A DNA stretch of 58,718 nt from Patescibacteria group bacterium (GCA_038063415.1 JBBTVD010000021.1:1-58718); one strand, 5' to 3'; shown: positions 13,174-56,066, numbered from the stretch's first letter. Numbers and translations: made by a program. Notes: generated by a model from the letters alone, not told the origin.

Positions 13174-13218
13174 TTTTTACTAATTCTTTCTTTATACCAT
13201 CTCCAATATTTTCTGTAG

Positions 13219-15854: not shown

Positions 15855-16684
15855 TTGTTATTTCGTAAAACTCCTATAAAAATAGCTCCAAAAAGTAAAT
15901 TTATTGGAGTAAATCTTGATAAAGGATACAATGTCGTTAACGCATTATACACAGTTGTTCGTAGTCCCTTTCCCTTTTTTACAAATCCTATCTCAATCTG
16001 TAACTTGCCAGTAAAATGATATTTTTTAAAGAGATTCTTCAAATAAAAATATGTGGGTTCATTAACATGTTGTATTTTTTCCTCGGGTGTCCGTGGATCA
16101 TCTGGCAAAGGATTATATTTCTTTCCTTTAATTACTTGGTCAATTTTTGTAAGCAGCTTGTTCATAGGTAAGATATACCAACGATAGGTGAAATTATATA
16201 ACAGTCTGTTTGGTCCTGTATGAACAAAAAGAATACCATCTTTCTTGAGCACTCGAGAAATTTCATTGAGAGCTAACGGTACTTCTTCTTTATAAAGATG
16301 TTCAAGTACATCAATACAAATAACAACATCAAAATAATTATCAGGTAACTGCAATTTTTTTATATCCATCTGATGAAACTGTAAAAATTTTTTTACCTTT
16401 GGATCAGATATTTTTTTTAGCTTTTCAGCAATATCTATGGCAGCCTCAGCATAATCGATACCTATAGATAGGTGACCTTTATTTGCAAAATAATAAGAGA
16501 TGTCTCCACGACCACATCCCACATCAAGAATTTTTGCATCAGAAGGAATTGGTATTGTCTGAAGTAGTTGGCGTAGTCTTGGATGCAGCTCTCTCCCTTT
16601 AGTTTTTTTAAACTCTTCAGAGCCCAAACATACTTTTAGATAGTATTCCTTTGTATAAATCTTCGAATCAATTGATTGCATCAC
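15851..16684 (-). CDS. Class I SAM-dependent methyltransferase
   Basis: ILDVGCGRG, FDVVICIDVLEHL, RVLKKDG. Confidence 0.88.
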   Translation of the reverse strand: MMQSIDSKIYTKEYYLKVCLGSEEFKKTKGRELHPRLRQLLQTIPIPSDAKILDVGCGRGDISYYFANKGHLSIGIDYAEAAIDIAEKLKKISDPKVKKFLQFHQMDIKKLQLPDNYFDVVICIDVLEHLYKEEVPLALNEISRVLKKDGILFVHTGPNRLLYNFTYRWYILPMNKLLTKIDQVIKGKKYNPLPDDPRTPEEKIQHVNEPTYFYLKNLFKKYHFTGKLQIEIGFVKKGKGLRTTVYNALTTLYPLSRFTPINLLFGAIFIGVLRNNK

Positions 16685-17904: not shown

Positions 17905-18015
17905 ATACAACATTATAACAATATTTATCCATGTCTGTAGCAGAAAGAAGGTTCTCTTATTGAAATTATATGAGGTTTTATTCTATAATGAATCAATTAA
18001 GACACTGATATACTA

Positions 18016-20243: not shown

Positions 20244-22805
20244 TTATTTTTCTGTTGTCTGAGAAACTTTGTGATAGAGAGAAATTCTCTCAGGGCTTGC
20301 AACAAGAAGGCCAGATAGATAAAAATCTTCTCTTGTACCAAACACTTCATAATAAGTAAAATTCGGAGAAAAATCAGCTATTTTTTTATATTTTTCTTTT
20401 TCCAGGCGATGTACGAGATCATTTTTGGGAGACTTTTTTACCAGCCTTTCCTCCATAACATCATTTGTTATAACCACATATACGGGCAATTCCTTACTGG
20501 TACTGGCAACAAGTTTGTAGCGGTAAACATTGTTGTTGCGGACATCATATTGAGAGTAATAAAACTCCTGTTGTATAAGATCAGGCAGCATTTGATAAAT
20601 GGGAATATTCTCTACGCCAATAACAGCACCATCAGGGATATTGCTTCGTATCCAATCAGAACTTATTTCTTGCACACTTCTTGCAGATTTAATGCTAACC
20701 CATGAGAAGACTTCATATACCTGTATTAAACCAACAATGCAGAGCATAAAAAGTATTATATTTTTCCTTTTTGTTTGGAGTAATCGTTTCAGTGCCATCG
20801 CAATAAGTAAAACAAAAAATGGCAAAAGCACTAAACTTCTGTTCCCTACAGCAGAAAGCTGTAATGGCAACAAGCTCAACAAGAAAACAATCATCCCTGC
20901 AAAAAGAAAGGCGGTGATTTTATGTTTTGTTATCCCCTCTTTAAAGAAAAGATGCAGTAAATAGATTAACGAAACAATAAGTAAAAAGATAAATCCATGA
21001 CCAAAAAGGAGTGGATAGTGCTGCGTAAATAAATAGATGTATGGATTAACTCCAAGAGAAAAATTCTGTGTCAGATTTGGACTATGAATAATATTGTCGT
21101 ATAAATAGTATAAAATATTTCCTCTTCCAAATAATGTGTCGGGAAAACCAAAGAGAGTAATACCAAGCAACAAAAAACCAAATCCAAACAAGAATGTTTT
21201 TATATTTTTTCTCCAAGAAGGATAAAATAATAGATAGACCATAACGTATAGGATAAGTAACGGAGCAGCACTCACTTTTACAGAAATAGCCAATACTTGA
21301 GGTATCGCTGCTATTAAAAAATTATGGCGGGAGGGTTTTTTGGCAAATCTAATGAAGAAGAATAAGGAAAGAAGTATCCAAAATGAGAGCGCGATATCGT
21401 ATTTAAAATAACCGCTTAACATAAGCCAAACAGGTGTTGTAGCAAAGAACAATACTGCTATTTTCTTTGAAGCATGAAGTGCATGAACTGTCGCATAAAG
21501 AAGCATAAGTGTACCCACTCCCCAAAGTAGGGTATTTAGCCGTAAAAGGGTAAAAAGCCTCTCACGCATTTCCCAATCAGTGATAGTAAATGCAGTAGGA
21601 TCTACAACGTTAAAGATAACAAAAGGTGCAAGAAAAAAAGCACTTAAAAGAAAGTGAAACATTGTCCCGTTGGCTGAACCTTCGGTATTTGGCGTCCCAT
21701 CAGTAATGGTTGTTACAACAGCATGGAATTGATGCCATTCATCCATGTGATACGGGAAAGGACGAGAACTGTCAGGAATCCCCCAGCGTAAGGTGAGTAA
21801 TAAATATCCTACATAAATTGCTACTATCAAAAGTAAAAATTTATTTTGTCCTATGAAAGTAAGATACTTATACTGAATAACACGTTTGACTATACCGAAT
21901 ATTGTCCCCAGGATGACCGCAACATCTGAAGTAAATTGCAGTAACGGCAAATAAAAATTTGCTAAAGGGAGTTTGACATAGCGATAATTCTTGGTAATCG
22001 ACCAAACGATATACCCTACGAAAAGCATTCCAACAACCACGGCACCGAGTACAGAGCGATACAACAAGCATAAAAAGATAAGATACAAGCCAATAAAATA
22101 TCGAGCAAGGAGAAGTAATACCTTTGCTCTCCATATGCCAGCTTCGACGTCACCAAGAGCAAAACGGAAGAACATAATAAAAGCTTGTTTGAAATTATCA
22201 CGAGGAATCCAGTAGACAATCGCATCTTTGACAAAGACCATCTTTGCGTGAGCTGCTTCGAGACGCTTGGCAAAAGCATAATCTTCGTTGTGCGAAAGAC
22301 GTTCATCAAATCCGCCTATTTTCTTCCATATTGCCTTAGTAAACGCAACGGAGCGAGTTGCTGGCAAGAAGTGTTCTGGATTAACTTGATCAGGCATCAC
22401 AAACACATACGGAAGTAAACATTTTTGAAAAACATTTTTGGGTTTTGCAGCATAATACCCAGCAACTACATCTATCTTTTTATCTCCGAATGGCTGAGTT
22501 ATCTTTTTTAACCAATTTTTATCTAAAATATTTCCTGCATCAGAACAAGCGATGATGCTTCCTGTTGCTTTTTGAATAGCGAGGTTACGACCTACTGATC
22601 TATTGCCTTTCTTCTGAATTATTTTTACCTTTTTACTGGAAATTGGAAATTGGAAATTGGAAATTATCGAAAAAGTATCATCGGTACTTCCTCCATCAAC
22701 AATAATAATCTCATCTGGTAGTTTGGTTTGTGCAAGGAGAGAGTTGAGGAAGTTATCAATGGTGTGCTCTTCGTTAAAAACAGTGGTTATAAAAGAAACC
22801 TTCAT
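20244..22805 (-). CDS. Fusion: GT2 plus GT-C membrane glycosyltransferase
   Basis: VSFITTVFNEE, VDGGSTD, SDAG, GGFDE...EDY; then multi-TM region with 'PYHMDE' loop. Confidence 0.8.
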   Translation of the reverse strand: MKVSFITTVFNEEHTIDNFLNSLLAQTKLPDEIIIVDGGSTDDTFSIISNFQFPISSKKVKIIQKKGNRSVGRNLAIQKATGSIIACSDAGNILDKNWLKKITQPFGDKKIDVVAGYYAAKPKNVFQKCLLPYVFVMPDQVNPEHFLPATRSVAFTKAIWKKIGGFDERLSHNEDYAFAKRLEAAHAKMVFVKDAIVYWIPRDNFKQAFIMFFRFALGDVEAGIWRAKVLLLLARYFIGLYLIFLCLLYRSVLGAVVVGMLFVGYIVWSITKNYRYVKLPLANFYLPLLQFTSDVAVILGTIFGIVKRVIQYKYLTFIGQNKFLLLIVAIYVGYLLLTLRWGIPDSSRPFPYHMDEWHQFHAVVTTITDGTPNTEGSANGTMFHFLLSAFFLAPFVIFNVVDPTAFTITDWEMRERLFTLLRLNTLLWGVGTLMLLYATVHALHASKKIAVLFFATTPVWLMLSGYFKYDIALSFWILLSLFFFIRFAKKPSRHNFLIAAIPQVLAISVKVSAAPLLILYVMVYLLFYPSWRKNIKTFLFGFGFLLLGITLFGFPDTLFGRGNILYYLYDNIIHSPNLTQNFSLGVNPYIYLFTQHYPLLFGHGFIFLLIVSLIYLLHLFFKEGITKHKITAFLFAGMIVFLLSLLPLQLSAVGNRSLVLLPFFVLLIAMALKRLLQTKRKNIILFMLCIVGLIQVYEVFSWVSIKSARSVQEISSDWIRSNIPDGAVIGVENIPIYQMLPDLIQQEFYYSQYDVRNNNVYRYKLVASTSKELPVYVVITNDVMEERLVKKSPKNDLVHRLEKEKYKKIADFSPNFTYYEVFGTREDFYLSGLLVASPERISLYHKVSQTTEK
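22637..22664. repeat. Heptamer tandem repeat (TGGAAAT)x4 inside GT2 coding sequence
   Basis: Four exact copies read directly; encodes ISNFQFPIS. Confidence 0.9.
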
Positions 22806-34676: not shown

Positions 34677-35396
34677 TCATTGTCTCTCAAATCTCAAGAG
34701 CAAAAGCGTACGAATCGCCTCTTTCACTTCTTGCATATTCATATTTGAATTTCCGATGACTTGCTGCTTGAAATCAAATGGTATTTCTGCAATCGTGAAG
34801 CCTTTTTTATACACACGATAGACTATCTCTGACAAAAGAACAAATCCTTTTGCTTGTAGTTTTTGACTCACTAGATACGCAACAACTGGCCTAGTATAGC
34901 AGCGATAACCATTGGAATAATCGGTAATGGGCACTTGCAGGATAGTCTTAGCACCAAAGTTCATTAATTTACTCATCAGCCTTCTTTTTAAAGTCAAACC
35001 AGCAATGGTCGATTGTGGTAAATATTTTGAAACAATGACCATGTCTGCATCGGTACACTTCGCAATCATTTTTGGGATGTATTTGGGAGGATGGCAGAGA
35101 TCTGCATCCATTTCAATAAAATACTGTATATCTTTATTTTTTAATGCTTCTTTAAACCCGACAATAACAGCAGACCCTCGACCCCCCTTACCCTTTCGTA
35201 TAAGAACTGTCACTTTTTTATCTTTTGCAAAATGTTGTTTTACCAACATACCTGTACCATCCGGAGAATTATCATCAACAACGAATACCAGTGCATGAGG
35301 GGCATCTTGTTTAATACTTTTTACTAATGCAATGATCGATCCCCGAGCATTATAGGTAGGAATAATAATGGCAATCTCCAATAAAGAAGCTTTCAT
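34677..35396 (-). CDS. Polyprenol-phosphate sugar synthase (DPM1/Ppm1-like GT2)
   Basis: IIIPTYN, VDDNSPDGT, MDADLCHPP, D.SNGYRCY, EIPF.F; start moved to MKASLL (35396). Confidence 0.85.
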   Translation of the reverse strand: MKASLLEIAIIIPTYNARGSIIALVKSIKQDAPHALVFVVDDNSPDGTGMLVKQHFAKDKKVTVLIRKGKGGRGSAVIVGFKEALKNKDIQYFIEMDADLCHPPKYIPKMIAKCTDADMVIVSKYLPQSTIAGLTLKRRLMSKLMNFGAKTILQVPITDYSNGYRCYTRPVVAYLVSQKLQAKGFVLLSEIVYRVYKKGFTIAEIPFDFKQQVIGNSNMNMQEVKEAIRTLLLLRFERQ

Positions 35397-35465
35397 AGAG
35401 TTATTAGTTATTATACAATGATCATGACTAAAATACAGGAGAAGATATGATGAGAGACTGAGCAT

Positions 35466-36488
35466 CTATGAGTGCGTCTTCCAGAGGTTCAGATATAATT
35501 CCGCCATGTTCTCCCATGTTTGTTTTCCTACCCAAGTAAATGATTTACTAATAAGTTTCTTTTCTTTTTCTGGATGTTTCAGGTAATAAAGTACTTTTTC
35601 TGCAAGTTCCTGCGCGTTTTTGGCAATTACTATGGTATCCGCAAATGGAGCTAACCGTAGATAATCTTCCTTCACTGGATTATCATAAAGTGCAAATACG
35701 AGTCTTTTGGCAGCAAATGCTTCAAGAATTGATAAATACCGTGATACAAAGGCAAAATGATAAGGAGCGAAATACCTTTCAGGATCCTTTTTGAAACCCA
35801 ACACGTTTGTTTTTTTCTCCACCAGCTTTCTTTCTTTTCCATCTCCAACAACGAGCATGGTGAATCCAGGAATTTGTTTTTTTACCAAATTAAAGGCGTT
35901 AAGATATTCTCGTATACCAGTTTGTTCATCTAATCTACCAATAAAGACTGCTGAAGACGATTTTACCTTTGCTATTTGCCTTTTATTATTTGCCAAGTTA
36001 ACCGCCCCATAACTAACAAACGTTGGCTTTGTCCCGTACCACTTAGTAATAAAATCACCAATGCAAATATTTCCCCAGGAAAGTTTTTCTGAAAGTTTGC
36101 GGATAAGGATCGCTTTTTTCTTGATAGGATAGCTCTCGTATCCATGAAACGTCGTATAGACCGGCTTCTCTGGATAGAGGAAGCGAAATGGAAGGTACCA
36201 AAAGAAAACATCATGACAGTGAACAAGATCAGCTTTTTGGATAAGCTCTCTTTTTTTCAGAAGATAACTCCACAGATAAAATTTTTTGGATCGCCCTTCT
36301 TTTCTTACAGGGATTCTATAGACCTGTATCCCACTGATGGTTTCTTGTTGTTTTGCTCCGGAGAAAGACTCAGTAATAACACTGACTTGATGGCCTCTCT
36401 GAAGGAGTTGTTTACTCAGTTCCAAGACATGTTTTTCTACGCCACCAATCTGAGGATAAAAACGCCTGCAGAAAAAAAGGATACTCAT
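35466..36488 (-). CDS. GT4 glycosyltransferase
   Basis: FYPQIGGVE, VHCHD, FIGRL, ILEA motifs. Confidence 0.85.
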   Translation of the reverse strand: MSILFFCRRFYPQIGGVEKHVLELSKQLLQRGHQVSVITESFSGAKQQETISGIQVYRIPVRKEGRSKKFYLWSYLLKKRELIQKADLVHCHDVFFWYLPFRFLYPEKPVYTTFHGYESYPIKKKAILIRKLSEKLSWGNICIGDFITKWYGTKPTFVSYGAVNLANNKRQIAKVKSSSAVFIGRLDEQTGIREYLNAFNLVKKQIPGFTMLVVGDGKERKLVEKKTNVLGFKKDPERYFAPYHFAFVSRYLSILEAFAAKRLVFALYDNPVKEDYLRLAPFADTIVIAKNAQELAEKVLYYLKHPEKEKKLISKSFTWVGKQTWENMAELYLNLWKTHS

Positions 36489-37729
36489 ATTTCAAGATAA
36501 TTAGTCAAATGAGTTCTTACTTGTGAAATAAACTGTCTAACTTGATGCACATTTATTCTTTGTATCTTCCTTCTCTTTGAATTTACTTCCTTCTCTTTTA
36601 TTAATTTCTCATAAAGTTTCTCTAAATATAAGGCAGTCTTCTCGATTGAAAATTTTTCAACGGATAACCGTGCTTCTTGAGAGAAAGCCTGGTGTACTGG
36701 CCTATTGTTAATAACAGTAAGTGCTCTTTCTGCAAATTCTTTCGAGTCACTTACAAGATATCCATTCTTGCCACTGGTAATAACCCCTTCAAAAACATCA
36801 TCTTTTACTGCTACAACTGGCACTCCTGAAGCAAGTGCTTCAAGAATCACCAATCCTTGTGTTTCTGATTGGGAAGCAAAGACAAAAAGATCAGCATCTG
36901 CATACACCTTAGGTATGTTCTTATGAGCTATTACCCCACAGAAGTAAACACTTTTCTCTATTTTTAGATCTTTTGCCAAATTTTTAAGATTCTCTTTTTC
37001 ATGTCCGTCCCCAATTAATACAAGCACTGTATCTGGAGACTCTTTGTGAATCAAGCTAAAAGATTTAATAACAAAATCTACTGATTTTTCTTTTCCTAAT
37101 CGAGCAATACATAAGAGTATTTTTTTATTTTGTGCTAACTTAAGTTTCCTTCTCAGAAATCCTTTTTCGATATTCTGATAATTATTCGTATCTATCCCAC
37201 TTGGCAAAATATGAATTGGTCTTTTTATGCCATAAGACACCAGTTCTGTTTTTACTCTTTTTGTTGGAGCAATAATATAGTCAAGAAGATTTCCAACCAA
37301 CTTTGTTAGGAAATCAACCATTTTGGGATTTATAACTTTTCCATATAGCACATAATGGGTATAACGGTTCAAAAAAGTATGATATGTTACTACATAAGGG
37401 ATATTTTTAAATCGGGCTGTTTCTAGACCTAAGAAAGTAATTCCTCCACCTGATGGATGACCATGAATAATATCAAAATCAATTCCAACAATCTGTAAAA
37501 GAGCTTTCTCAGGCAATTGCAATGCCATACGAAACCCTGTTGATTTAGGTAGTTTAACTGATAGCAGACGATATACACGTTCTCTTTTTTCTTTATATCT
37601 TGGATATTTTGGCGCAATGATATACACTTCGTGACCACGGGCTTCAAGAGCTTGAGCACATGTCTCAACAGATATGGTAACTCCATTAATATGAGGCAGG
37701 TATGTGTCGGTAAAAAATCCAATTTTCAT
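36485..37729 (-). CDS. GT4 glycosyltransferase (diacylglycerol glucosyltransferase-like)
   Basis: MKIGFFTDTYLP.INGV..S, TYHT, RL..EK, SETQGLVILEALASGVPVVA. Confidence 0.88.
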   Translation of the reverse strand: MKIGFFTDTYLPHINGVTISVETCAQALEARGHEVYIIAPKYPRYKEKRERVYRLLSVKLPKSTGFRMALQLPEKALLQIVGIDFDIIHGHPSGGGITFLGLETARFKNIPYVVTYHTFLNRYTHYVLYGKVINPKMVDFLTKLVGNLLDYIIAPTKRVKTELVSYGIKRPIHILPSGIDTNNYQNIEKGFLRRKLKLAQNKKILLCIARLGKEKSVDFVIKSFSLIHKESPDTVLVLIGDGHEKENLKNLAKDLKIEKSVYFCGVIAHKNIPKVYADADLFVFASQSETQGLVILEALASGVPVVAVKDDVFEGVITSGKNGYLVSDSKEFAERALTVINNRPVHQAFSQEARLSVEKFSIEKTALYLEKLYEKLIKEKEVNSKRRKIQRINVHQVRQFISQVRTHLTNYLEI

Positions 37730-37847
37730 ATTTTTTGAGATATCTTTAGCATTATAAAAATATACTATATTATAGCATGCGGATGATTTGAAAGAATGGA
37801 GAGTAATAGGAGCCGTGGTAAGTATGGTATAATTTTAGAATGTTCAT

Positions 37848-38594
37848 ATGAAAAATGCTTCTTCGCCACAGAAAACCATGGCTGGTTTACCTTTTATTTC
37901 TGTTGTTATCGCTGCATATAATGAAGAGAAATATCTCCCTTATTGTTTAGAAGCTTTACAACAGCAAACATACCCTCGAACAAATTTTGAAATTATTGTT
38001 GTGGATAATAACTCAACGGATAAGACTGCTGCTATTGCTAAGGCTGCAGGAGCAAAAATTATCACCGAAAAGCGTCAAGGGAATATTTTTGCTGTTACTA
38101 CTGGTATGACAAAAGCAGAAGGAGAGATCATTGCGACAACGGATGCTGATACCATCCCACATGCCAATTGGTTGCAGAAGATTGCTGAGACACTACAGCC
38201 GAAAGAGATTATTGGATTAACGGGAGCGATTACTCTCGAGATCAAAAATCCTCTCAAAAGAGTTATTGCTGAAAAAATATATGATCTTTTTCAGCAAGTT
38301 CACTTTTTTATAGGAAAACCTAATTTTTCAGGTTTTAATCTTGCAGTCAAAAGAAAATCCTTTCATAAGGTTGGAGGAATCGATATGGACTACAAGATGA
38401 GCTGTGATGTTGATCTCGGGTTACGACTTGGGGAAACAGGAAAGGTAGTTTATGCCAAAGACGTCATCGCCACTACTTCGCTGCGTCGCTGGGAAAAAGG
38501 ATTTTTCAAAACATTTGGAGAATATGCGAGTTCATATGTATACGTTACCTGGTTGCGGAAACCATCTCCTGTGAGCCAGTCTATTGTACGCTGA
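37848..38594 (+). CDS. GT2 glycosyltransferase
   Basis: ISVVIAAYNEE, VDNNSTD, TDAD, G.NLAV, TS.RR. Confidence 0.88.
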   Translation: MKNASSPQKTMAGLPFISVVIAAYNEEKYLPYCLEALQQQTYPRTNFEIIVVDNNSTDKTAAIAKAAGAKIITEKRQGNIFAVTTGMTKAEGEIIATTDADTIPHANWLQKIAETLQPKEIIGLTGAITLEIKNPLKRVIAEKIYDLFQQVHFFIGKPNFSGFNLAVKRKSFHKVGGIDMDYKMSCDVDLGLRLGETGKVVYAKDVIATTSLRRWEKGFFKTFGEYASSYVYVTWLRKPSPVSQSIVR

Positions 38595-46760: not shown

Positions 46761-47312
46761 TTACGAAAATAATTTTCTCCTAAAGTCTTCTAATTTCTTT
46801 TTATCCAATTTCATCTTCAAAATATCAAACGCCAATTCGTTACCCCAATATTTTTCTGAAATTACCAATTCAACAAACTCCTCAAAGCTCATCTCAATCG
46901 TTTCAATCTTCTCTCCAGCATCCAGCTGTTGCTCGGCAACTTTTTTACAGTTTCGAGCGACATAGAGAAAAATCTGCCAATCGATTTTGTGATACGGTTC
47001 AAACACTTTCAGAAGCTCCCAATCATTTGACTGCAAGCCTGATTCTTCAAGTAATTCTCTTTTGGCTGTTGTTTCGGGCGCTTCATCAGGTTCTCCACGC
47101 CCTCCAAAAAGAGAGTAATAATTATGATGATTTGGCTGTGATTGTTTGGAGAGAAGGATTTTGTCTCCTTGTGCCGCGATTATTTCTATCGTATTGGGAC
47201 GTTTAAGCATCTCAAAAGTTTCGTGAGAGCCATCAAACATCTCCTGCTCCCAATGATATACGTCAAAGATCTTGCCGGCAAATACTTTTTTTGCTTCTTC
47301 TGGGACTCGCAT
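46761..47312 (-). CDS. NUDIX hydrolase (ADP-ribose pyrophosphatase-like)
   Basis: Nudix box GGRGEPDEAPETTAKRELLEESG; QLDAGEKIE. Confidence 0.9.
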   Translation of the reverse strand: MRVPEEAKKVFAGKIFDVYHWEQEMFDGSHETFEMLKRPNTIEIIAAQGDKILLSKQSQPNHHNYYSLFGGRGEPDEAPETTAKRELLEESGLQSNDWELLKVFEPYHKIDWQIFLYVARNCKKVAEQQLDAGEKIETIEMSFEEFVELVISEKYWGNELAFDILKMKLDKKKLEDFRRKLFS

Positions 47313-47356
47313 CATGGTCAGTTTAGCAAATACACACTCTTGTTGCAATTAAAAAG

Positions 47357-49360
47357 TTATTCTGCATTCTTGGAGATAATATAATAGAGAATCGATAGTG
47401 GGCTTCGCTCTTCTATCTTAAGATTCTTGGGAATATCCTGTATCGCAACGGGTTCATAATATGACTTCCACATCCAGATAAGATTTGCCCACTCAGTAGA
47501 GAAGCTGCCACCGGATGCGAGCAAATCCTTTTCATAGGGCTCAAATGACGGCAACGTCCCCAAATAATCAGATGCTGGAGTAAAGGGCAGCAATTGGATA
47601 CCATAAATCATATTACCCTTATCACTAAACCAGGTAGCAAAATCAACTTTGCCTCCCCAGACAATTGATGCAATACGGTGCTTATAGGGAGCTTTATACA
47701 TACCTTTGCTGTCAAACCAATAGTATTTGGCTGCTTCTATTTCGGTTCTGTATAAGGCCAACGCATAATCACGAAGTGTGGTGTTCTTCGTCATCTCACT
47801 CCACAAATATAAGCTATACCACGTATTAATGGCTTCAGAGGTAGACTCTTGATTATTGCCATCGGGAGCTTTTGCTTCACCATCTGCCCACGAATGCCCT
47901 TCATAAATTTCAAAGTTACGAAGGAATGGATACTTGTCTGAGGAACGATCTGTTGTGGCGATATCACTAACCATTTCATCAATAACTGGCTGCACCGTTG
48001 CTTGAATCGTCGGATCCATTCGGGATAGAATTGCTGCTGTCTGAATGTAATACCCATAATGGAAATGATGATCATTGAGTTTTTCATTACCAAATTCAGG
48101 TTTCTTCGCAATGAGACTGGTTTTTGACTCATCATACGAATAGTACTTAAGACTCTCTTTAAAAATTGGCGTTATATAGGTAACTAGCTTCTTCTTTTCG
48201 CTTTCCATACTGAGCGTTTCTGCGATAAGTAGCAGCCTATTTGCGGTCCCAAACCAGGTTCCCATGAAATAATTACGACTTTCTGGAACTGGTTCTTTGA
48301 TAAAGTCAGCAATATCTTTTGTTAGCTGCTTTTTTACTTCAGCTTGGTTTTTTGTTAAGGATGGAAATGTTGCTGAAGGAGCATCAAGTGGCATACTTGT
48401 CGTGAAATTACTTGCTCGAAGTAAGGTCATCTCACCTCGAAGGGTATCGTACGTGCCAATTTCCTCCCCATCACTACTTAAGAAATCAACCTGGTGTGGG
48501 AATAATGCAATAAGCGGTGTGCCAGTTGTTGTAGACAAAGCATACGTACTTACAAGCTCATCTTCTGAAACGGCATACGCTACACGAGTATTGGTAATTT
48601 CACTCTGCGCGCTTGCAATAAACGTATCAATATGAGCAGGATCATCAAGCACCCCAACGAAGATGGTTTTTACTTCTGGAATAGTAAGCGTATTCTTTGT
48701 CTTTGTGACCGCATATGCTTGATCAAAAGAAAAAACGTAATAGGCATCTTTTACTTTTACCAAGAATGATTTTATTGAAAAAGTATCCTCTTTTATTTCT
48801 TTCTCTGGAGAATTCTCGTAGGTGGTAAAAGCATGTTTTGTTTTGATCACCACATCCTGCCCTTTTACCGAGATAACAGTTGAAGGCACCCCTTGCGTCA
48901 ACATAAATGCTAAGGACTTACTACCAGCACTTGTTAGATCGAGACCGACATTCCAGTCTCCAACATGAGTGACTTGCGATTTTGTTATAGGTGAAGTAAA
49001 TCCAATGGTAAAGTCCTCATCATATCCGGCAAAGATCGTCTTTTCAGTTCGATTTACTTTGGGAAAAGAAAATCCAAGACCATCTGAAGTGAGTTTGTAG
49101 GCAAGTGGGAAAGCATACAGCGCTTGTGAAGGAAAAGAAGCTACCGAGCTATACCATTTGTTTGATTTAACTGTCGAGAGGGAATGTTCAGCACTTACAT
49201 CCACTGTTTTTGTTCCTGAAGGTTGGTTGCTAACCATTCCAGTAATCGCCTTGGGGATAGTATTCTGTGCATAAACAAAAGAGAAATAGACAACTCCAAA
49301 AAAGAGAGCCGTTCCTGCCATAAGGAAAAAAAGGATAGTCTTGTGTGATTTACTTATCAT
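47357..49360 (-). CDS. GH81 endo-beta-1,3-glucanase, N-terminally membrane-anchored or exported
   Basis: SNKWYS, NDHHFHYGYY, YPFLRNF..Y.GHSWA.G, DGNNQESTSEA, YGIQLLPFTP. Confidence 0.9.
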   Translation of the reverse strand: MISKSHKTILFFLMAGTALFFGVVYFSFVYAQNTIPKAITGMVSNQPSGTKTVDVSAEHSLSTVKSNKWYSSVASFPSQALYAFPLAYKLTSDGLGFSFPKVNRTEKTIFAGYDEDFTIGFTSPITKSQVTHVGDWNVGLDLTSAGSKSLAFMLTQGVPSTVISVKGQDVVIKTKHAFTTYENSPEKEIKEDTFSIKSFLVKVKDAYYVFSFDQAYAVTKTKNTLTIPEVKTIFVGVLDDPAHIDTFIASAQSEITNTRVAYAVSEDELVSTYALSTTTGTPLIALFPHQVDFLSSDGEEIGTYDTLRGEMTLLRASNFTTSMPLDAPSATFPSLTKNQAEVKKQLTKDIADFIKEPVPESRNYFMGTWFGTANRLLLIAETLSMESEKKKLVTYITPIFKESLKYYSYDESKTSLIAKKPEFGNEKLNDHHFHYGYYIQTAAILSRMDPTIQATVQPVIDEMVSDIATTDRSSDKYPFLRNFEIYEGHSWADGEAKAPDGNNQESTSEAINTWYSLYLWSEMTKNTTLRDYALALYRTEIEAAKYYWFDSKGMYKAPYKHRIASIVWGGKVDFATWFSDKGNMIYGIQLLPFTPASDYLGTLPSFEPYEKDLLASGGSFSTEWANLIWMWKSYYEPVAIQDIPKNLKIEERSPLSILYYIISKNAE

Positions 49361-49364
49361 GGTA

Positions 49365-50141
49365 TTATTCTTTCAAAGAAAGTAGTCCGTTCCAAAAATT
49401 TACAAAGAAATCGATTGGCTTATTGATCTGATCTTCATCAGTTACCACTTTTAATTCTAAATCTTCATTATGAAGCAGACTTGCAGCATCACTTTTGTCA
49501 GCAAAGACAAAATAAAGCCCCAACTTTTTTGCATTAATTTCCTTATCTTCTTCTGCTTCGGGCTTTAGCTTTTCAGCTTTTACCTGAAAACTTTGGTTGA
49601 GTCGAGCACTATACGCTTTGATATTTTGCAGCTTTTGCACCTGCTGATACTCCTCAACAGTCAACTCCGAAAGGAACCGTACATGCTCACTTGAATAGAT
49701 TTCCATTGCTTTGGATAGATCATTGACCGGACCTCCTTCGGTAATCGTAATTTCTCCAACAATCCCATCAACTGATGAGACAATAATCAAATTTTTCAAC
49801 TCTTCTTCAGCAACCTTTGCCTCTGTTTGCGCTGAAACATTGTCTTTAAATTCTTTTAATGAATTTATTTTTGAACGAAGCATCGGATTGTCAATTCTCA
49901 CCAACACTTGCCCTTTTTTCACATGATCACCAGTCTTTACCTTAATTGAGGTTACAATACCATCAGAAAGTGCTAGCACAGGAACAATTTGCTTTACCAC
50001 TACCCCATGGATATCATTGGTGTTTTCTGCACGATACTCATTTACTTTTTTGGTAAGCGCAATGGTTGCGACAGAAATTGCCAACACGGCAACAATAGTG
50101 AAAAAAAGAATGTTTAAAATAATACTCCAAAAACGTTTCAT
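49365..50141 (-). CDS. HlyD/membrane-fusion-like adaptor (lipoyl-like halves, short coiled hairpin)
   Basis: N-terminal TM; 'SDGIV..I.VK.GD.VKKGQVL.RI' and 'I.SSVDGIV..I....G..V'. Confidence 0.78.
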   Translation of the reverse strand: MKRFWSIILNILFFTIVAVLAISVATIALTKKVNEYRAENTNDIHGVVVKQIVPVLALSDGIVTSIKVKTGDHVKKGQVLVRIDNPMLRSKINSLKEFKDNVSAQTEAKVAEEELKNLIIVSSVDGIVGEITITEGGPVNDLSKAMEIYSSEHVRFLSELTVEEYQQVQKLQNIKAYSARLNQSFQVKAEKLKPEAEEDKEINAKKLGLYFVFADKSDAASLLHNEDLELKVVTDEDQINKPIDFFVNFWNGLLSLKE

Positions 50142-50143
50142 AG

Positions 50144-51625
50144 TTATTCTGTTAATCCATTCTTAATAAAAGCAAACAAAAAATAAGCGTTCATTAGCAC
50201 CCAGAAGGTGGTAATACTGGTTGTGACGATATCAACGGGATTAAACCAACCTACCAGTACCGATAGTAATGAAAGAATAATGATAAAGACATGAGGCCAG
50301 ATATCAGTCATTATAACAGAAAGCGATTTTCTTTTTGATTCAGTTGCGACCCATGTATAATGATTTTTTAAGACAACTGAAAAGAATGCTTTAATATACG
50401 GATAAAAACTTGCCATTGATGTACTGATTGTCGAAAGTCGTAAACTACCAAGCAAAAAAATAGGCAAGAAATAGACCGTCAGAAAATAAGGAACATAATG
50501 CTCCAACCAAATATTTCCATGAGACAAATTCATCGGATGTAGGCCAAAAAGGAGATAAAAAATTGGTAATGTAATATAAATAAGTACCGAAAAAGCACCA
50601 AAGTAATGGAGATTGGAAAAGAAATACTGTAATTTCTGGTCAGAGGTCAAACCACTGACAAACAGTGGATTATGAGTAAAGAAGAGAGAGAACCCACCTC
50701 TCGCCCATCTATTTTGTTGGCGGAAAAAAGCATTGATCGTTTCTGGAGCAATTCCTTCTGCAAGTATCTTGTTATAAAAAATTGATTCAAACCCTTTTTC
50801 ATGCAACATAATCGTTGTCCAAACATCTTCTGAGTGATTTACCTTTGCAATGCCTCCTATTGCTTCAATCGAAGACTTTCGATAAATCATATTGGTTCCC
50901 ACACAAAAAGAGGCATTTGAACTATTCTTTGCTGGCTGTACATATTTATAAAACACATCTTGTGCTTGTGCTGTCCCCGAAGCGATAAAACTATGTGTGT
51001 TAACAAAATGCTGTGGTGTTTGTACAAGAGCTACTTTTTCATTTTCAAAAAATGGTAAAAGCTCGGTCAAAAAAGTCTTCTTCGGGATATGATCCGCATC
51101 AAAAACCGCGAAGAACTCACCATGGAAAAATTTAAGACCGTAATTTAAGTTACCTGATTTTGCATACCCTTTTGCGTGTGCGGGACGCGCGATATAAAAA
51201 GCACCAACTTCCTTGGCAAAAGCTTCTACCTCAGCAGATTTCCCATCATCCAAGATGCAGGTTTCATGTAGATAGTCCATTTTTACGGCGTTGATGACTG
51301 TTTTACGAATAATCTCAATTGGTTCGTTGGCTACTGGGATAAAAACACCAACTCGTAATTTGTTTTCTTCGATCCATGCTTTTTTATATCGATATTCTCT
51401 TTTATGATACTCAGGCAAAATAAGATCGAGCAAAATCGTCAGCCACAACGTCCCCAACACCACAATTGCGATAAAATCCGCGACTATTTGTAAAATATAC
51501 AGATAGATATTTCCCGCATTTACCGGATTAAAAACATATACGGCATAATATAAAATCGTAAATGGCGCAAGCAGAATAAAAAGAAGCGCGGTATTTTGTA
51601 ATTTTTTTGTTTTGATTGTTCTCAT
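50144..51625 (-). CDS. Processive GT2 beta-glucan synthase (BcsA/CrdS/BgsA-like) without PilZ domain
   Basis: LDDG, YAKSGNLN, FDADH, QTPQ.F, FCVGT, SED, QQNRW (QxxRW); 2 N-terminal plus ~4-5 C-terminal TMs. Confidence 0.88.
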   Translation of the reverse strand: MRTIKTKKLQNTALLFILLAPFTILYYAVYVFNPVNAGNIYLYILQIVADFIAIVVLGTLWLTILLDLILPEYHKREYRYKKAWIEENKLRVGVFIPVANEPIEIIRKTVINAVKMDYLHETCILDDGKSAEVEAFAKEVGAFYIARPAHAKGYAKSGNLNYGLKFFHGEFFAVFDADHIPKKTFLTELLPFFENEKVALVQTPQHFVNTHSFIASGTAQAQDVFYKYVQPAKNSSNASFCVGTNMIYRKSSIEAIGGIAKVNHSEDVWTTIMLHEKGFESIFYNKILAEGIAPETINAFFRQQNRWARGGFSLFFTHNPLFVSGLTSDQKLQYFFSNLHYFGAFSVLIYITLPIFYLLFGLHPMNLSHGNIWLEHYVPYFLTVYFLPIFLLGSLRLSTISTSMASFYPYIKAFFSVVLKNHYTWVATESKRKSLSVIMTDIWPHVFIIILSLLSVLVGWFNPVDIVTTSITTFWVLMNAYFLFAFIKNGLTE

Positions 51626-53619
51626 TGTTTTTTCTTATGGTGAATAAACCCTAGATAGATTCGAGCTATCACAATTTGTATCGGAATAAGTAGGATCAAA
51701 AAGACTCCAATATGGAAATAAACTGGCCAGCTATGTTTGAGTACCAATTCTCCACCAGCCTCTTTATTATCCAAGCTAACAAGCATAAAGTTAGGACCAC
51801 TTGGCCGTATCTTTTGCTCTCTCCCATCAAAATAGGCTTTCCAACCAATATCGTGACTCTCATTGATATAGACCAAATTACTTGCTCTATTGGCAGGAAT
51901 CGAAACTTGCAGCGTATCAGGTGTAGGATAGACTACCGACAATGGAATGTTTTCAGATTTATATAAGATACCACTTAACCGTTTTACGTAATCGTCAAGG
52001 GCTATTTGATCATTGACGCTTGAGAATTTCAGATCAAAAGGGAAATGCTTTAAAGCTTTCTCATCCTTCTGATCAACCAGGACACTATTTCTCGTTTCCC
52101 AAGGCACTTCAAACCCATGATAAAGAGAAGTACTTGTCTCAATCTCCCCTAAATCCTTATAACCCAGCTGTGTTTTATTTTTGTATGAGTAAGTAAATGG
52201 AGAACTCTTTTCAAAAATGAGATACCTTGTTCCGGTGATTTTATAATAATCACTCAACCGTTGCAATGTGGCATCAGGTGCTTCCTCAAAATACGGGTGA
52301 TAAAACATAAGCTGAGACAATCGCTGTGGAATTTGATTTGAATCCATATGTTCCATATATGAGTATGGATATTTAGCATCAGCCGGCCCCAAATAACTTG
52401 ACCAATGAATCGTTGGTGTAAAAACTCTTGCACTTGCCGTATCAATCAGTTGCTTGTCGTGTGCTACGGCAACCACATCTTCTGCTTTTTTAATTGGCTG
52501 CGGAGAATAGATACTGGTAAACCATAATCCTTCGATCAATGAGAGGAGAAAGATAAAAACAACAACTCCCTTAAATACACGGGATTTAAGCTGGATAATT
52601 CGCTCAACTACTACAGCAAAAGTAAACAAAATAGCAATGCCGATTAACGTCGTTCCACGAGAATACTGAAATTGATATAACGCCCCCGGAAGATCAAGCG
52701 AGACACCAACAATAATAAGTGTCAAATAAATGAGTGAGAAAACAAGCAACACCTTTGCCCAACCAAGTTTGGCTGGAAGCGGTTTGAACATCCAGAAAAA
52801 AGATAATCCAAGTGCAAGAAAAAGAAAGAGACTCAATCCATAATAACTATATTTTGAGATAGCAAAGTCGAGAAAATATTGTGTTGAAAAAACTGGGTTT
52901 GAATAAAAATAAGATAACTTACTGACAATCGGAAACCAAAAAAGTGATGACGTCGCAAGGATAATAAGAAATTGTATAAAAATAGGCCAAGAAATAATTT
53001 TTTTCTCAGAAAGAATAACTGATAATACCCATAATCCCATCGCACTAAAGCCAAGCAGGGGATGCATATAAAAACAACTACCTGCAATATAAGGGTATAC
53101 ATACTTTATTTTCCCCTGATGGTATTTTGTCCAAGCAAAAATGATAAGTGGAAAAAAAGTAAAGGCAAAAAGCAAAGAATAGTCTCCAATGCCACTCCAA
53201 TATTGCCCAATAGCAAAAGATAAAATGGCACAGATAAAAGCGGTAAGAGGGCTAAAGCTAAGAAGACGCAAAATAAAATAAATGAGAAGTCTTAACCCAA
53301 CAAATTGAACGATAGTCATAATCACCATTGCGCGATGTATCTCTAGATGCAAAAGTTCGGCAATCCCTAAAGTCAGATAGTGAGGAATAAATTGGTAGCT
53401 ACGCCAAATACTAATGCCATTGGACCAGGCGTGCACCCACGAAGTAAATCCATAGTCTTCAAGAAGTTTGATACGAAAAGATTGTACGATCCAGTCAGCA
53501 TACCCTGTTTGCAGATATTGTGCGTCAAAATAAAAAGAGATGAGAGCTAACGAGATAGTTGTTAACAACGAGAGGAAAAGAAGATCGAGTAAAAAAACTT
53601 TCTTAAATATCTTATGCAT
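51622..53619 (-). CDS. YfhO-like / GT-C polytopic membrane protein
   Basis: 'W...WSNG..I..SYQ', many TMs, C-terminal 'INES.D.GWKAY.DG' followed by a last TM. Confidence 0.72.
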   Translation of the reverse strand: MHKIFKKVFLLDLLFLSLLTTISLALISFYFDAQYLQTGYADWIVQSFRIKLLEDYGFTSWVHAWSNGISIWRSYQFIPHYLTLGIAELLHLEIHRAMVIMTIVQFVGLRLLIYFILRLLSFSPLTAFICAILSFAIGQYWSGIGDYSLLFAFTFFPLIIFAWTKYHQGKIKYVYPYIAGSCFYMHPLLGFSAMGLWVLSVILSEKKIISWPIFIQFLIILATSSLFWFPIVSKLSYFYSNPVFSTQYFLDFAISKYSYYGLSLFLFLALGLSFFWMFKPLPAKLGWAKVLLVFSLIYLTLIIVGVSLDLPGALYQFQYSRGTTLIGIAILFTFAVVVERIIQLKSRVFKGVVVFIFLLSLIEGLWFTSIYSPQPIKKAEDVVAVAHDKQLIDTASARVFTPTIHWSSYLGPADAKYPYSYMEHMDSNQIPQRLSQLMFYHPYFEEAPDATLQRLSDYYKITGTRYLIFEKSSPFTYSYKNKTQLGYKDLGEIETSTSLYHGFEVPWETRNSVLVDQKDEKALKHFPFDLKFSSVNDQIALDDYVKRLSGILYKSENIPLSVVYPTPDTLQVSIPANRASNLVYINESHDIGWKAYFDGREQKIRPSGPNFMLVSLDNKEAGGELVLKHSWPVYFHIGVFLILLIPIQIVIARIYLGFIHHKKKQ

Positions 53620-53706: not shown

Positions 53707-54528
53707 TTATAATTTTCTGAAGTACCCATGGGTTTCACCACCAGCAATAAGCACGCCTACTTGTTCTTTTTTATCTTTAAAGAATTCATCGCAGGCTTTC
53801 TTAACCCCTGGCAAGATATTGTTGACGTCGTGAACCTTGGGATCACTATAGTCATCGATCACCACAATTGCCCCTTTGGACAATTTGGGATAGACATTGA
53901 TAAGGCTCTCAAAAATTGAGGAGTAAAAATCTCCATCCAAATGAGCAAAACTTATTTGCTTGGGCAATCCTTTTGGCAAGGTATCTGCAAACCATCCTTC
54001 ATGAATTTTTGGCAATTTAGTTTTGTGCTGTTTAAAATTGTGTATGAGTGCTTCTTTTTGGGTTTTACAGCTTCCAGCATAAAAAGCAGTAACACCATCT
54101 TTTGTTGACTTCTCTGGTAGGCCTTCAAAAGAATCGTAAGCATGAATCGTTTTTTTGGAACCAAGCTGATCGAGTGTTTTTTGTATCAGGATTGAGGTCG
54201 TGCCGTCATACGAACCAAGTTCAACGATATCTCCGGGGATCTTCAGCAGTACCGTTTGTGTCAGGAGATGGTAGATATTAATGGCTTGCTCGACATTTGA
54301 CCAATCTCCAGCAAGCATATTTTCTTTGGAATCATACTTTTTGGTATTTTTGATCTGATATACACGATTTAAGTTATCGTTTTTGAATTTGAGTTTGAGA
54401 AATCGTTGGTTGCCATTAAAGAACTTAATCATTTGGGCAAGAATATTTCTTTTGGTGTCTGTTTTTGTTTTTTGTTTTTGAAGGCTAAGGATGAAGGTGT
54501 TATCAATAGGGTTAGTACTTTTGCTCAC
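53707..54528 (-). CDS. TylF/MycF/NovP-family O-methyltransferase
   Basis: IPGDIVELG, YDSFEGLP, GWF.DTLP, HLDGDFYSS, IDDY; start uncertain (GTG 54528 chosen from upstream TATAAT). Confidence 0.88.
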   Translation of the reverse strand: MSKSTNPIDNTFILSLQKQKTKTDTKRNILAQMIKFFNGNQRFLKLKFKNDNLNRVYQIKNTKKYDSKENMLAGDWSNVEQAINIYHLLTQTVLLKIPGDIVELGSYDGTTSILIQKTLDQLGSKKTIHAYDSFEGLPEKSTKDGVTAFYAGSCKTQKEALIHNFKQHKTKLPKIHEGWFADTLPKGLPKQISFAHLDGDFYSSIFESLINVYPKLSKGAIVVIDDYSDPKVHDVNNILPGVKKACDEFFKDKKEQVGVLIAGGETHGYFRKL

Positions 54529-54588
54529 AATAAAACTATTATACACTAGATCATTCCCTATCGTCTAATGGGAAGAGAAATTTTATAA

Positions 54589-55287
54589 TTATTTAAAATA
54601 TGTTTTCACCATAGGATATATTTCTTTTTCCCAAAGAGCGTATTGTTTTGCCGAAGGATGCAATTCGTCAGCGGCAATCAAACTTGGGTCAGTACGTGCT
54701 TTTTGACTAAGAGGATAAATATCGACCACATGGAGATTTCGTTTTTTACCTTCTTCTTTAATGATTTCATTGAATTCGGAAATTCCAACTGCGATATCTC
54801 GCCCATTACTATACCGCTTGCCTGTGGGTGTGACAGAAAAATCAGGAATGGTGATAAGAAGAAGATTTTGCTTTTGTGAAAGATTTTGCTGCATACGATC
54901 AAGAATAACAATAAGATTGTTATGAAACGTTTCCTTATCCACTCCCTGCACCCAATCATTGACGCCAATAAGAAGTGTAGCAAAAGTTGGATTAGACCTA
55001 TCATACAGAGGGAGTTCTTTATCAATAACATCCTGTGTTGTCCAACCAGTTACGGAAGGATTGGCAATAAGTCCAATATCGATTCCCTCTTTCTGTAAAT
55101 GATCCACGAGCAACACAGGCCAAGATTCTCCTTCTGACGCTCCTTCTCCAATCGTATATGAATCTCCTAGTGCGACATACCGTATTGTGTGAGAATTCAC
55201 TTTTTGCATATTTTTATTATTCTGAATTACAAAGATAATAGCAATGATAACAATTATAATTACCCCAATGAGAATATACTTGTTCAT
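54589..55287 (-). CDS. SGNH/GDSL hydrolase with N-terminal TM
   Basis: ALGDSYT, G.TT, IGVND, DELHPS blocks. Confidence 0.9.
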   Translation of the reverse strand: MNKYILIGVIIIVIIAIIFVIQNNKNMQKVNSHTIRYVALGDSYTIGEGASEGESWPVLLVDHLQKEGIDIGLIANPSVTGWTTQDVIDKELPLYDRSNPTFATLLIGVNDWVQGVDKETFHNNLIVILDRMQQNLSQKQNLLLITIPDFSVTPTGKRYSNGRDIAVGISEFNEIIKEEGKKRNLHVVDIYPLSQKARTDPSLIAADELHPSAKQYALWEKEIYPMVKTYFK

Positions 55288-56066
55288 CTTTTTTTTTCTT
55301 GCAAGCTGCGTGCTACTTTTGCAGCAAGACTTGGAGGGACAAATCGAGAGATCTCAACACCTATTCTATTCTTAATCCCTGGAACAATAAGCGTTTTGTT
55401 ATTCATCAATCCTTCATAGGCAATTTGAGCAACCAGTGATGCTTTCATATTTTCTCCACTAAAGAGCTTTGAACTTTCTAAATGTGCTTTTTTAACAAAA
55501 CCGGTATCAGTCGGCCCTGGACAAAGAACTGAAAGAGAAACACCAGTTCCCATAAGTTCATTGGCAAGCGCCTCTGAAAATGAAAGCACATAGGCTTTGG
55601 AAGCATAATAAACCGCCATCAAGGGGCCAGGAAGAAAGGCAGCAGTTGAAGCAACATTAAGAATTTTTCCTTCTTTCCGCTTGACCATATTTCGTACAAA
55701 AAGTTTGGTAAGGTGAGTAAGCGTAACAATATTAACTTGCAGCTCCTCCAATTCTTTTTCCAATTCTATTTCAGTAAACAAACCATATGTTGCAAACCCG
55801 GCATTATTAACAAGAACATCAATCTTAATGCCTTTATGATGAAGTTCATTATAGAGTTTAGCTGGAGCTTTGGCATCTGACAAGTCCTTTACCATACAGT
55901 AAATTTCAATCCCTTCTCTTTGTAATTCTTTTCCAGATTGCAAGAGTTTTTCTTTATCTCTTGCAACAAGAACAAGATTGTATGTATTCGCAGCAAAGAT
56001 TTTAGCTAACTCAAACCCAATGCCTGAAGATGAGCCAGTAATAAGGACTGTTTTATTTGCACTCAT
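55284..56066 (-). CDS. Short-chain dehydrogenase/reductase
   Basis: ITGSSSGIG, LVNNAG, YYASK, CPGPT.T. Confidence 0.92.
   Translation of the reverse strand: MSANKTVLITGSSSGIGFELAKIFAANTYNLVLVARDKEKLLQSGKELQREGIEIYCMVKDLSDAKAPAKLYNELHHKGIKIDVLVNNAGFATYGLFTEIELEKELEELQVNIVTLTHLTKLFVRNMVKRKEGKILNVASTAAFLPGPLMAVYYASKAYVLSFSEALANELMGTGVSLSVLCPGPTDTGFVKKAHLESSKLFSGENMKASLVAQIAYEGLMNNKTLIVPGIKNRIGVEISRFVPPSLAAKVARSLQEKKR

Follow-up and report, generated by a model that had tools for sequence, protein, structure and literature searches.

A conserved synthase-adaptor-GH81 gene cassette and its proposed role in surface β-glucan synthesis in Patescibacteria

The stretch of DNA analyzed here, referred to as the window, comprises 58,718 nucleotides from Patescibacteria group bacterium (GCA_038063415.1, JBBTVD010000021.1:1-58718). 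At positions 47357-53619 it contains four co-directional open reading frames (ORFs) on the minus strand, which encode a membrane protein that we call memX, a BcsA-like glycosyltransferase of family 2 (GT2), an HlyD-type membrane-fusion adaptor and a membrane-anchored glycoside hydrolase of family 81 (GH81). This cassette is real and conserved, and it is probably functional. On balance, we consider it to be a synthase-dependent machine for a surface β-glucan in a single-membrane cell of the Patescibacteria, also named candidate phyla radiation (CPR), where the best-supported product, held with similar, limited confidence, is a β-1,3-containing glucan. The four genes are:

53619..51622, minus strand: memX (name used here), ORF of 665 aa, membrane protein with a predicted GT-C fold
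51625..50144, minus strand: BcsA-like GT2, ORF of 493 aa, recognized from Pfam GT2 families and motifs
50141..49365, minus strand: HlyD-type membrane-fusion adaptor, ORF of 258 aa, recognized from Pfam HlyD_D23 and Biotin_lipoyl_2
49360..47357, minus strand: GH81, membrane-anchored, ORF of 667 aa, recognized from Pfam Glyco_hydro81C

Gene order and inheritance

The ORF coordinates reproduce the tight packing that had been described in a sequence-only reading of the window, i.e., a 4-nt overlap between memX and the GT2 gene (51622-51625), a 2-nt gap between the GT2 and adaptor genes (50142-50143) and a 4-nt gap between the adaptor and GH81 genes (49361-49364). Close orthologues of the GT2 (61-66% identity) were found in 4 of 40 relatives. 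When ten local window proteins were used in tblastn searches, memX was found directly upstream of the GT2 at all four of these loci, the HlyD-like and GH81 genes followed in the window order in each of the three contigs that run on, and none of the genes flanking the cassette in the window was present at the four loci. A scan with a memX profile, using one genome per species, yielded 14 loci, four of which are the contigs identified with tblastn. The order memX-GT2-HlyD-GH81 is seen at 11 of the 14 and the remaining three are cut by contig ends, i.e., the order is kept in 11/11 complete loci. The flanks vary from locus to locus, and none of the flanking genes of the window is common to them.

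Because the gene order recurs in all complete loci, the four-gene arrangement is more than chance. From the conserved order in combination with the changing flanks it follows that the cassette is a discrete four-gene unit, which is either mobile or independently retained. Co-conservation of the four genes, for which a neighborhood check had been proposed, is thereby confirmed. At two of the loci the gene that follows GH81 is of interest in its own right. At L028 (11953-13350) it is GH16-like (24.1 bits vs a cut-off of 22 bits) and would represent a second β-1,3-glucanase family, and at L032 (15348-16064) it encodes a small GT2 of family PF00535, a possible lipid-sugar synthase for memX.

The host is treated here as a Microgenomates-type member of the Patescibacteria/CPR. 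Its assembly (1.57 Mb, 32 contigs) is 90% complete, and all genome-wide absences given below are provisional to that extent; genome sizes of its relatives are 0.6-1.8 Mb. Records that carry orthologues are labelled Candidatus Levyibacteriota/Levybacteria, Gottesmanbacteria or Parcubacteria, and the labels uncultured Gammaproteobacteria, Methylomirabilota and Sulfotelmatobacter found on some of them are taken as binning errors. Six DNA sequencing runs contain the stretch or part of it, four of which (study P1) are labelled groundwater metagenome, with three of these four as possible source runs; no RNA run is listed as containing the stretch. A scan for promoters and terminators was uninformative, as the counts equalled the shuffled expectation (37 vs 35.2; 10 vs 7.9).

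Synthase, hydrolase and the identity of the polymer

The GT2 protein matches the Pfam families PF13641 (9.2e-20) and PF13632 (3.9e-16), and its translation contains the motifs DDG (residue 126), FDADH (175), SED (265) and QQNRW (303). Hydropathy indicates two transmembrane (TM) helices near the N-terminus and a bundle of them at the C-terminus, with the GT domain between them in the cytosol. The protein thus displays the signature of a processive β-glucan synthase, i.e., D, D, D, QQNRW in a GT domain that is flanked by TM segments. It stops at residue 493, after the last hydrophobic helix, and has no C-terminal cytosolic domain. No PilZ match was found in the protein (Pfam and NCBIfam) or in the assembled genome, and the motifs and Pfam families agree with the earlier description of a processive synthase devoid of PilZ. 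Because the C-terminal domain is missing and neither PilZ nor GGDEF was found in the genome, it is plausible, as had been suggested, that the synthase is independent of cyclic di-GMP (c-di-GMP).

The last ORF of the cassette matches PF17652 (2.6e-53, 182 bits vs a cut-off of 25.6 bits) and, in the PDB, 6fop (4.9e-71, residues 62-643) and the structures of BH0236 (about 3e-49). The segments NDHHFHYGY and NNQESTSEA align with the solved enzymes. The first motif is kept in 18/19 and the second in 19/19 of the GH81 genes in this study. The protein contains the catalytic domain of GH81, in which both the Asp motif and the Glu-x-x-x-Glu motif are conserved; the catalytic residues would be among those of NDHHFHYGY and QESTSEA. 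A hydrophobic segment at residues 8-26 corresponds to one TM helix, or a signal anchor, at the N-terminus. Judged from these matches, the 667-aa protein is a membrane-anchored homologue of GH81 endo-β-1,3-glucanases.

The association between this hydrolase and a synthase extends beyond the close relatives of the host. In a phylum sample of 400 evenly chosen Patescibacteria genomes, GH81 was found in 7 genomes and BcsA-like GT2s in 28 genomes at 35 places. Six of the seven GH81 genes directly adjoin a BcsA-like GT2 gene, in several gene orders, and four of these six loci also harbor a gene for an HlyD-like protein of 213-253 aa. One of them (G253) also contains a memX-like gene (24% identity), which is the single occurrence of memX in the sample. 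At this locus (L040, G253:C4) the order is GH81-GT2-HlyD-memX-like, and its GH81 gene contains one in-frame TGA, which may reflect a pseudogene, a sequencing error or recoding.

These data support the earlier proposal that the GH81 is biosynthetic rather than nutritional, as does a search for GH3 (PF00933, the sole β-glucosidase family searched), which gave no match in the genome. The opposite view, in which the GH81 serves nutrition or attack by digesting β-1,3-glucan of a host or the environment (fungi, algae, curdlan producers) and is co-regulated with an unrelated synthase, appears improbable. It is in line with the origin of the solved bacterial GH81s, which are from polysaccharide degraders, and with the surroundings of three plasmid GH81s (Streptomyces, Deinococcus and Halopiger), all of which encode proteins of 890-1166 aa and are found beside regulators and transporters with no GT2 nearby. 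Furthermore, one CPR GH81 gene (L039) has no GT2 within the 14.7 kb examined, and at L041 the cassette abuts α-glucan genes (GT4/5, GH57, GH15). Against this view stand, in addition to the adjacent synthase in six of seven cases and the empty GH3 search, the GH81 linkage that is kept in all complete cassette loci despite changing flanks, and the protein itself, which is membrane-anchored and does not contain the extensions rich in carbohydrate-binding modules of the larger degraders; no sugar transporter is found nearby.

The pairing of synthase and hydrolase is not limited to GH81. Scanning 94 neighboring ORFs at the other 28 GT2 loci of the phylum sample, together with the loci from relatives, identified GH8 beside the GT2 at six sample loci and at two loci from relatives; in this GH8 clade a GT-C of the PMT_2 type is found on the other side of the GT2 in 6/10 loci. 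GH10 is located beside two GT2s (L056, L070), where the pairing includes UDP-glucose dehydrogenase, a gene that is seen beside four GT2s, and a GH26-like gene is found beside four (L058, L065, L067, L075). The GH10- and dehydrogenase-linked synthases could make a xylan-type polymer. As a general observation, a glycoside hydrolase recurs next to the BcsA-like GT2s of the Patescibacteria, and its family varies with the clade to which the GT2 belongs (L049-L076, L019, L020).

In a GT2 tree of 46 rows (from which 7 near-duplicates of the window clade, 6 loci with unexamined neighbors and 3 truncated genes were left out), the ten GT2s that have both GH81 and HlyD linked to them are united in one clade (UFBoot 94, SH-aLRT 95), and the eight GH8-linked GT2s form, together with one contig-cut row, a separate clade (100/100). 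The family of the hydrolase therefore tracks the lineage of the synthase, and it is mainly for this reason that the GH81 is proposed to act on the product of the adjacent synthase. The GH8-linked sister cassette serves as a natural control for the analogy with BcsZ. Similarity between the accessory genes of the two cassettes was looked for and not found, i.e., neither between memX and PMT_2 nor between the HlyD-like protein and a 252-aa Pro/Ser/Thr-rich protein.

Linkage specificity was addressed by comparison with the curdlan synthase CrdS; here and below, published systems are described according to the available parts of the cited texts. The comparison covers the residues named in the text of PMC6821405, and the GT2 on the Agrobacterium plasmid pAt2 (L044), which carries 9/9 of the numbered AtumCrdS residues of that text, was used as a proxy for CrdS. 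The CrdS-specific residues are Q237, Q259, K270, H374, W422, E439 and H442, and Arg at the position of BcsA Glu299 (PMC6821405). Three of these residues (Q237, Q259, K270) are present in the window GT2. In addition, the motif FCVGT is common to CrdS and all GH81-linked GT2s, that of the window included, the corresponding sequence in BcsA being FFCGS, and a Val at the position of the BcsA Cys is found in 10/10 GH81-linked GT2s examined, as in CrdS, with Cys in the GH8-linked ones. FCVGT was considered as a β-1,3 signature.

A number of observations weigh against the proposed machine and its β-1,3-containing product. FCVGT had to be rejected as a signature, as xCVG[ST] is found in 13 further GT2s, which have GH10, a GH26-like gene or no hydrolase linked to them. 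The GH8-linked paralogues carry the same three CrdS residues, and at CrdS positions 260, 374, 422, 439 and 442 the window GT2 has D, F, Y, T and T, although residues within the TM region are aligned with less certainty. In the tree, CrdS and BgsA are placed together with proteobacterial BcsA (98/91; 100 in another tree), apart from the window clade. Two GH81-linked GT2s (L037, L038) sit in a different deep clade and have no HlyD gene; more than one synthase lineage is therefore linked to GH81. Moreover, the relatives in which the cassette recurs are kin rather than independent samples, the product is assigned from gene content, and the catalytic competence of memX is deduced from a conserved Asp. 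By both clade and residues the window GT2 is outside the CrdS subfamily, and it also differs from BgsA (outside the BgsA clade, 493 vs 664 aa, no C-terminal extension). Thus, of the earlier suggestion of a curdlan-like or mixed-linkage system, the tie between GH81 and the synthase stands, but the tree places the GT2 outside the CrdS/BgsA clade. The GT2 sequence itself leaves the linkage undecided, and β-1,3 linkages in the product are proposed because of the association with GH81 alone.

An alternative is that the polymer is cellulose, or another polymer that is not β-1,3-linked, and that the GH81 homologue has shifted its specificity or acts non-hydrolytically, e.g., in chain release or binding. 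We consider this unlikely, even though the highest-scoring curated match of the GT2 is the cellulose synthase CelA (TIGR03030, 4.5e-70), its nearest solved relative is BcsA (7lby, 9.5e-50, residues 92-483) and the source labels of close homologues read "cellulose synthase (UDP-forming)". Position 260, which is Glu299 in BcsA and Arg in CrdS and BgsA (PMC6821405), is acidic and BcsA-like in the window GT2, and in the available text of PMC10374906 models of RiGT2 cannot separate a mixed-linkage product from cellulose. However, the TIGR03030 score is far under the cut-off (236.5 vs 699.1 bits) and that for NF008558 is also under its own cut-off (198 vs 992 bits), such that, having no PilZ domain, the protein is placed outside the BcsA family. 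In addition, the phylum contains a distinct GT2 clade whose partner is GH8, the family of BcsZ, and in G034 both pairings are even found within one genome; the product of the GH81-linked clade is therefore probably a different one. The motifs of the solved GH81 enzymes are also strictly kept. To our knowledge, the characterized GH81 enzymes (CAZy) are β-1,3-glucanases, which also counts against cellulose.

Adaptor, memX and the proposed mechanism

The adaptor matches HlyD_D23 (4.3e-09, 36.4 bits vs 30), Biotin_lipoyl_2 (33.6 vs 29.8 bits) and HlyD_3 in Pfam, as well as RND_mfp in NCBIfam (7.6e-13, below the cut-off). An AlphaFold2 (AF2) model (pLDDT 81.7) displays an N-terminal TM helix, a split lipoyl domain, a β-barrel domain and a short C-terminal helix, where the α-hairpin between the lipoyl halves is about 30 residues long (helices 86-96 and 102-116, i.e., 11 and 15 residues). 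Foldseek aligns the model with MexA, AcrA, MacA, EmrA, pneumococcal Spr0693 and BesA (about 1e-11 to 1e-9). The lipoyl domain, β-barrel and inserted α-hairpin place the protein among HlyD/AcrA-type membrane-fusion proteins (MFPs). It does not fit the tripartite MFPs, as the hairpin is short and a search of the genome for OEP/TolC (PF02321), which is present in 7/14 control genomes, gave no match; the earlier remark that the adaptor has no obvious TolC partner is consistent with this search.

A model of the complex between GT2 and adaptor gave a median ipSAE of 0.74, the best of three controls being 0.00. In a calibration that holds roughly for this model, which was built from custom alignments, the same mark was reached by 58/80 solved complexes and by 2/110 mismatched pairs. 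Contact agreement between runs was at least 98%, with a pLDDT of at least 76 for the partner, and the modelled interface involves adaptor residues 5-36 (the TM helix) and GT2 residues 359-360 and 435-462. The model supports binding of the adaptor to the synthase. It resembles the arrangement in cellulose synthase, where a TM helix of BcsB packs on the synthase.

The first protein of the cassette, memX, is predicted from hydropathy and its structural model to have about 11-12 TM helices in its N-terminal part and one more at the C-terminus, preceded by about 260 aa (residues ~372-630) that form an extracytoplasmic domain. Thirty-seven other full-length relatives were found among 5.8 billion proteins, all unnamed or "hypothetical", and a search of 1.84 billion with a memX profile gave 234 representatives (E<=1e-3). 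A direct family assignment was attempted without success, as memX has no match in Pfam or NCBIfam and PDB sequences gave nothing at E<=10 with a 27-member memX profile; the class was settled by fold alone. A Foldseek search of the PDB with the AF2 model (pLDDT 88, pTM 0.87) gave 23 matches at E<=0.001, each of which is a GT-C enzyme or a complex that includes one, among them AftD (6.4e-8), PglB, STT3, DPY19, ALG12 and AftA. The protein is thus, according to its model, of the GT-C fold.

The earlier designation of memX as a YfhO/GT-C protein is therefore correct with respect to the fold, supported by model and Foldseek, but YfhO is a distant, clan-level kin and not a family match. The window protein has 0 matches to YfhO (PF09586) or PTPS_related (PF10131), and one of the 27 family members touches YfhO, under the cut-off (1.6e-4). 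Among 38 distant memX matches that were scanned, 28 have no Pfam family and three remote relatives (P0179, P0180, P0187) reach PF10131 or PF09586 above the cut-off by profile chaining, i.e., two PTPS_related and one YfhO. The neighbors of memX in the Atlas are also YfhO/PTPS_related. These families share with memX the GT-C fold, the N-terminal TM bundle, the extracytoplasmic C-terminal domain and the last TM helix; they differ in that memX has no direct Pfam match and belongs to a small family.

GT-C enzymes carry a catalytic acid just after the first TM helix (TM1). In memX a motif YxDW..R is found after TM1, in which D42, at least 90% conserved, and R49, invariant, are located 16-23 residues from this helix. 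The genome contains an ORF with a GtrA_DPMS_TM domain and a GalU-like gene (308 bits, slightly below the cut-off of 326.8 bits), and the window contains many GT2, GT4 and PMT_2 genes. Because of the fold, the motif and these genes, memX is most likely a GT-C that requires a lipid-linked sugar as donor and would act on the extruded glucan. A distant memX relative, P0084 (945 aa), is composed of an N-terminal GT2 of family PF00535 fused to a memX-like body, which is the layout expected of a polyprenyl-phosphate-sugar synthase joined to its GT-C.

The main alternative is that memX is inactive as a glycosyltransferase and instead is a BcsB-like scaffold that guides the nascent glucan, with the GT-C body as a membrane platform. 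This alternative is doubtful, if less so than the cellulose and nutritional readings discussed above. The topology of memX, in which a single C-terminal TM helix comes after a large domain on the outside, resembles that of BcsB, the gene is the first of the cassette and overlaps the synthase gene, and the cassette has no gene for a polyprenyl-phosphate-sugar synthase or a flippase. On the other hand, conservation in the family is highest in YxDW..R, a motif located directly after TM1, in the region where GT-C enzymes carry their catalytic acid, and a PF00535 GT2 is fused to the distant family member and is found directly downstream of the cassette at L032. Furthermore, the GH8 cassette recruits another GT-C family, PMT_2. 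A lipid-linked-sugar-dependent glycosyltransferase thus remains the preferred assignment for memX.

Gene content, joint inheritance, the folds and the lack of TolC, GGDEF and PilZ genes in the assembly are direct results. From them we infer which sugar is the donor, how the polymer is linked, what GH81 and memX do and that a physical complex is formed, which together suggest the following mechanism. The GT2 would polymerize UDP-glucose at the cytoplasmic face of the membrane and thread the chain through its own channel, without a c-di-GMP switch. The adaptor, bound to the synthase via its N-terminal TM helix, would receive or guide the chain with an extracytoplasmic collar; its hairpin appears too short for an outer-membrane duct, and none would be needed. 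The membrane-tethered GH81 may cut the chain as it emerges or when it stalls, in the way that BcsZ or XcsC act on cellulose, in which case the polymer would contain β-1,3 linkages, i.e., be curdlan-like or of mixed linkage. Finally, memX would most likely decorate the glucan outside the membrane from a polyprenyl-phosphate sugar; a role in attaching the glucan to an acceptor in the envelope is less likely.

A broader reading can be put forward only tentatively. Each lineage of processive GT2 in the Patescibacteria could be co-inherited with an endo-hydrolase (GH81, GH8, GH10 or GH26-like) that matches its polymer, the combination of GT2, short HlyD and GH81 being a single-membrane machinery of the curdlan type. 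In this lineage, the new GT-C might attach lipid-linked sugars to the glucan, or the glucan to the envelope, and the β-1,3-glucan layer might serve as a wall or attachment matrix of an episymbiont.

The interest of the cassette lies in several areas. The genetics of bacterial curdlan synthesis is understood only in diderm Alphaproteobacteria, and even there CrdA and CrdC are without an assigned function (PMC10819609, available text). For the Gram-positive curdlan producer Cellulomonas, the available text of the 2013 genome report (PMC3544764) describes only GT2s of low identity to CrdS and no route found for re-use of the polymer. A PilZ-less synthase with a stripped-down adaptor and a tethered GH81 is a candidate for the missing curdlan machinery. 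The cassette would also be an example, known here from genes and models, of an MFP that operates without an outer membrane. Furthermore, memX suggests that synthase-dependent and lipid-linked-sugar pathways cooperate on one polymer, and the cassette as a whole points to a self-made glucan layer in the CPR, which are usually described as biosynthetically minimal.

Described systems and genomic surroundings

The closest described architecture is that of the Xcs-type operon, followed by bgsBA with TolC and crdASC. In cyanobacteria, the Xcs trio is composed of a BcsA-like synthase (XcsA), an HlyD-like protein (XcsB) and an endoglucanase (XcsC), and forms a conserved operon in S. elongatus PCC 7942 and N. 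punctiforme (PMC12430437). The Xcs system makes cellulose, its synthase contains PilZ, the hydrolase is a β-1,4-endoglucanase and a TolC-like duct is proposed (PMC12430437). In contrast, the window cassette has no PilZ and no TolC gene, GH81 replaces the cellulase, the adaptor has a short hairpin and a GT-C is added.

In Sinorhizobium meliloti (L043), bgsBA resembles the window cassette in that a PilZ-less GT2 is translationally coupled to an HlyD-type MFP (PMC13438883), and BgsA is about 33-34% identical to the window GT2 over the GT domain. However, according to the available text, BgsA (664 aa) has a C-terminal c-di-GMP-binding region of about 100 residues and BgsB (410 aa) needs TolC (PMC13438883). 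The operon contains neither a hydrolase nor a GT-C, and BgsA groups with CrdS and BcsA, apart from the window clade. The crdASC operon of Agrobacterium (proxy L044) also contains an HlyD-family gene, at the crdA position, followed by a PilZ-less GT2 that shares FCVGT, and its product is a β-1,3-glucan, as proposed for the window cassette (PMC10819609). It differs in the diderm host, in the sizes of CrdA (484 aa) and CrdS (655 aa) and in an operon that, as far as the available text describes it, is without GH81 or a GT-C. The window GT2 belongs to another clade than CrdS and does not have R260, H374, W422, E439 and H442. On the pAt plasmid of Agrobacterium fabrum, a second pair of HlyD-family and GT2 genes is found (L045), which is annotated "cellulose synthase catalytic subunit"; this GT2 groups with CrdS and BgsA, not with BcsA.

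The BcsA-BcsB-BcsZ(-BcsC) system shares with the window cassette a processive GT2 (D, D, D, QxxRW) and a matching endoglucanase in the operon, and differs from it as the window cassette has no BcsB, BcsC or PilZ. The true Bcs analogue in the phylum is the GH8-GT2-PMT_2 cassette. Taken together, the window cassette differs from the described systems by its GH81, the lack of a PilZ/c-di-GMP module, the short-hairpin adaptor, the lack of an outer-membrane partner and a GT-C of an undescribed family. A partnership between a GT-C of the YfhO/PTPS_related kind and a processive synthase was not found in the literature searched, nor was a description of a GT2-HlyD-GH81 operon or of CPR glucan synthases, in a search in which subscription journals were mostly outside the coverage.

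Several genes next to the cassette were considered as further components. A NUDIX hydrolase gene is located at 46761-47348 (minus strand), 8 nt downstream of the GH81 stop. It was rejected as a fifth cassette gene, as a NUDIX gene follows the cassette at just one (L024) of ten other loci with downstream sequence. A NUDIX gene is also found upstream of the lone GH81 at L039, and none is near the GH81 at nine other cassette loci. The NUDIX protein could be a nucleotide-sugar pyrophosphatase that tunes the supply of UDP-glucose, or its position could be a coincidence. On the other side of the cassette, genes for a TylF-like O-methyltransferase, a GDSL/SGNH hydrolase and a short-chain dehydrogenase (53707-56066, minus strand) are co-directional with memX and separated from it by 87 nt. 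These genes and the downstream isoleucyl-tRNA synthetase (IleRS) gene were also rejected as cassette components, as they are not beside the cassette at other loci.

Positions 1-43000 of the window constitute a surface-glycan island. It contains a Wzy_C gene (1435-2649), GT2 genes (8379-11340), two PMT_2 GT-C genes (11344-14817), a GT4 gene (14769-15854), a Wzx-like flippase gene (16684-17913), a GT2 and PMT_2 fusion (20244-22805), further GT4 and GT2 genes (34677-38594) and several methyltransferase genes.

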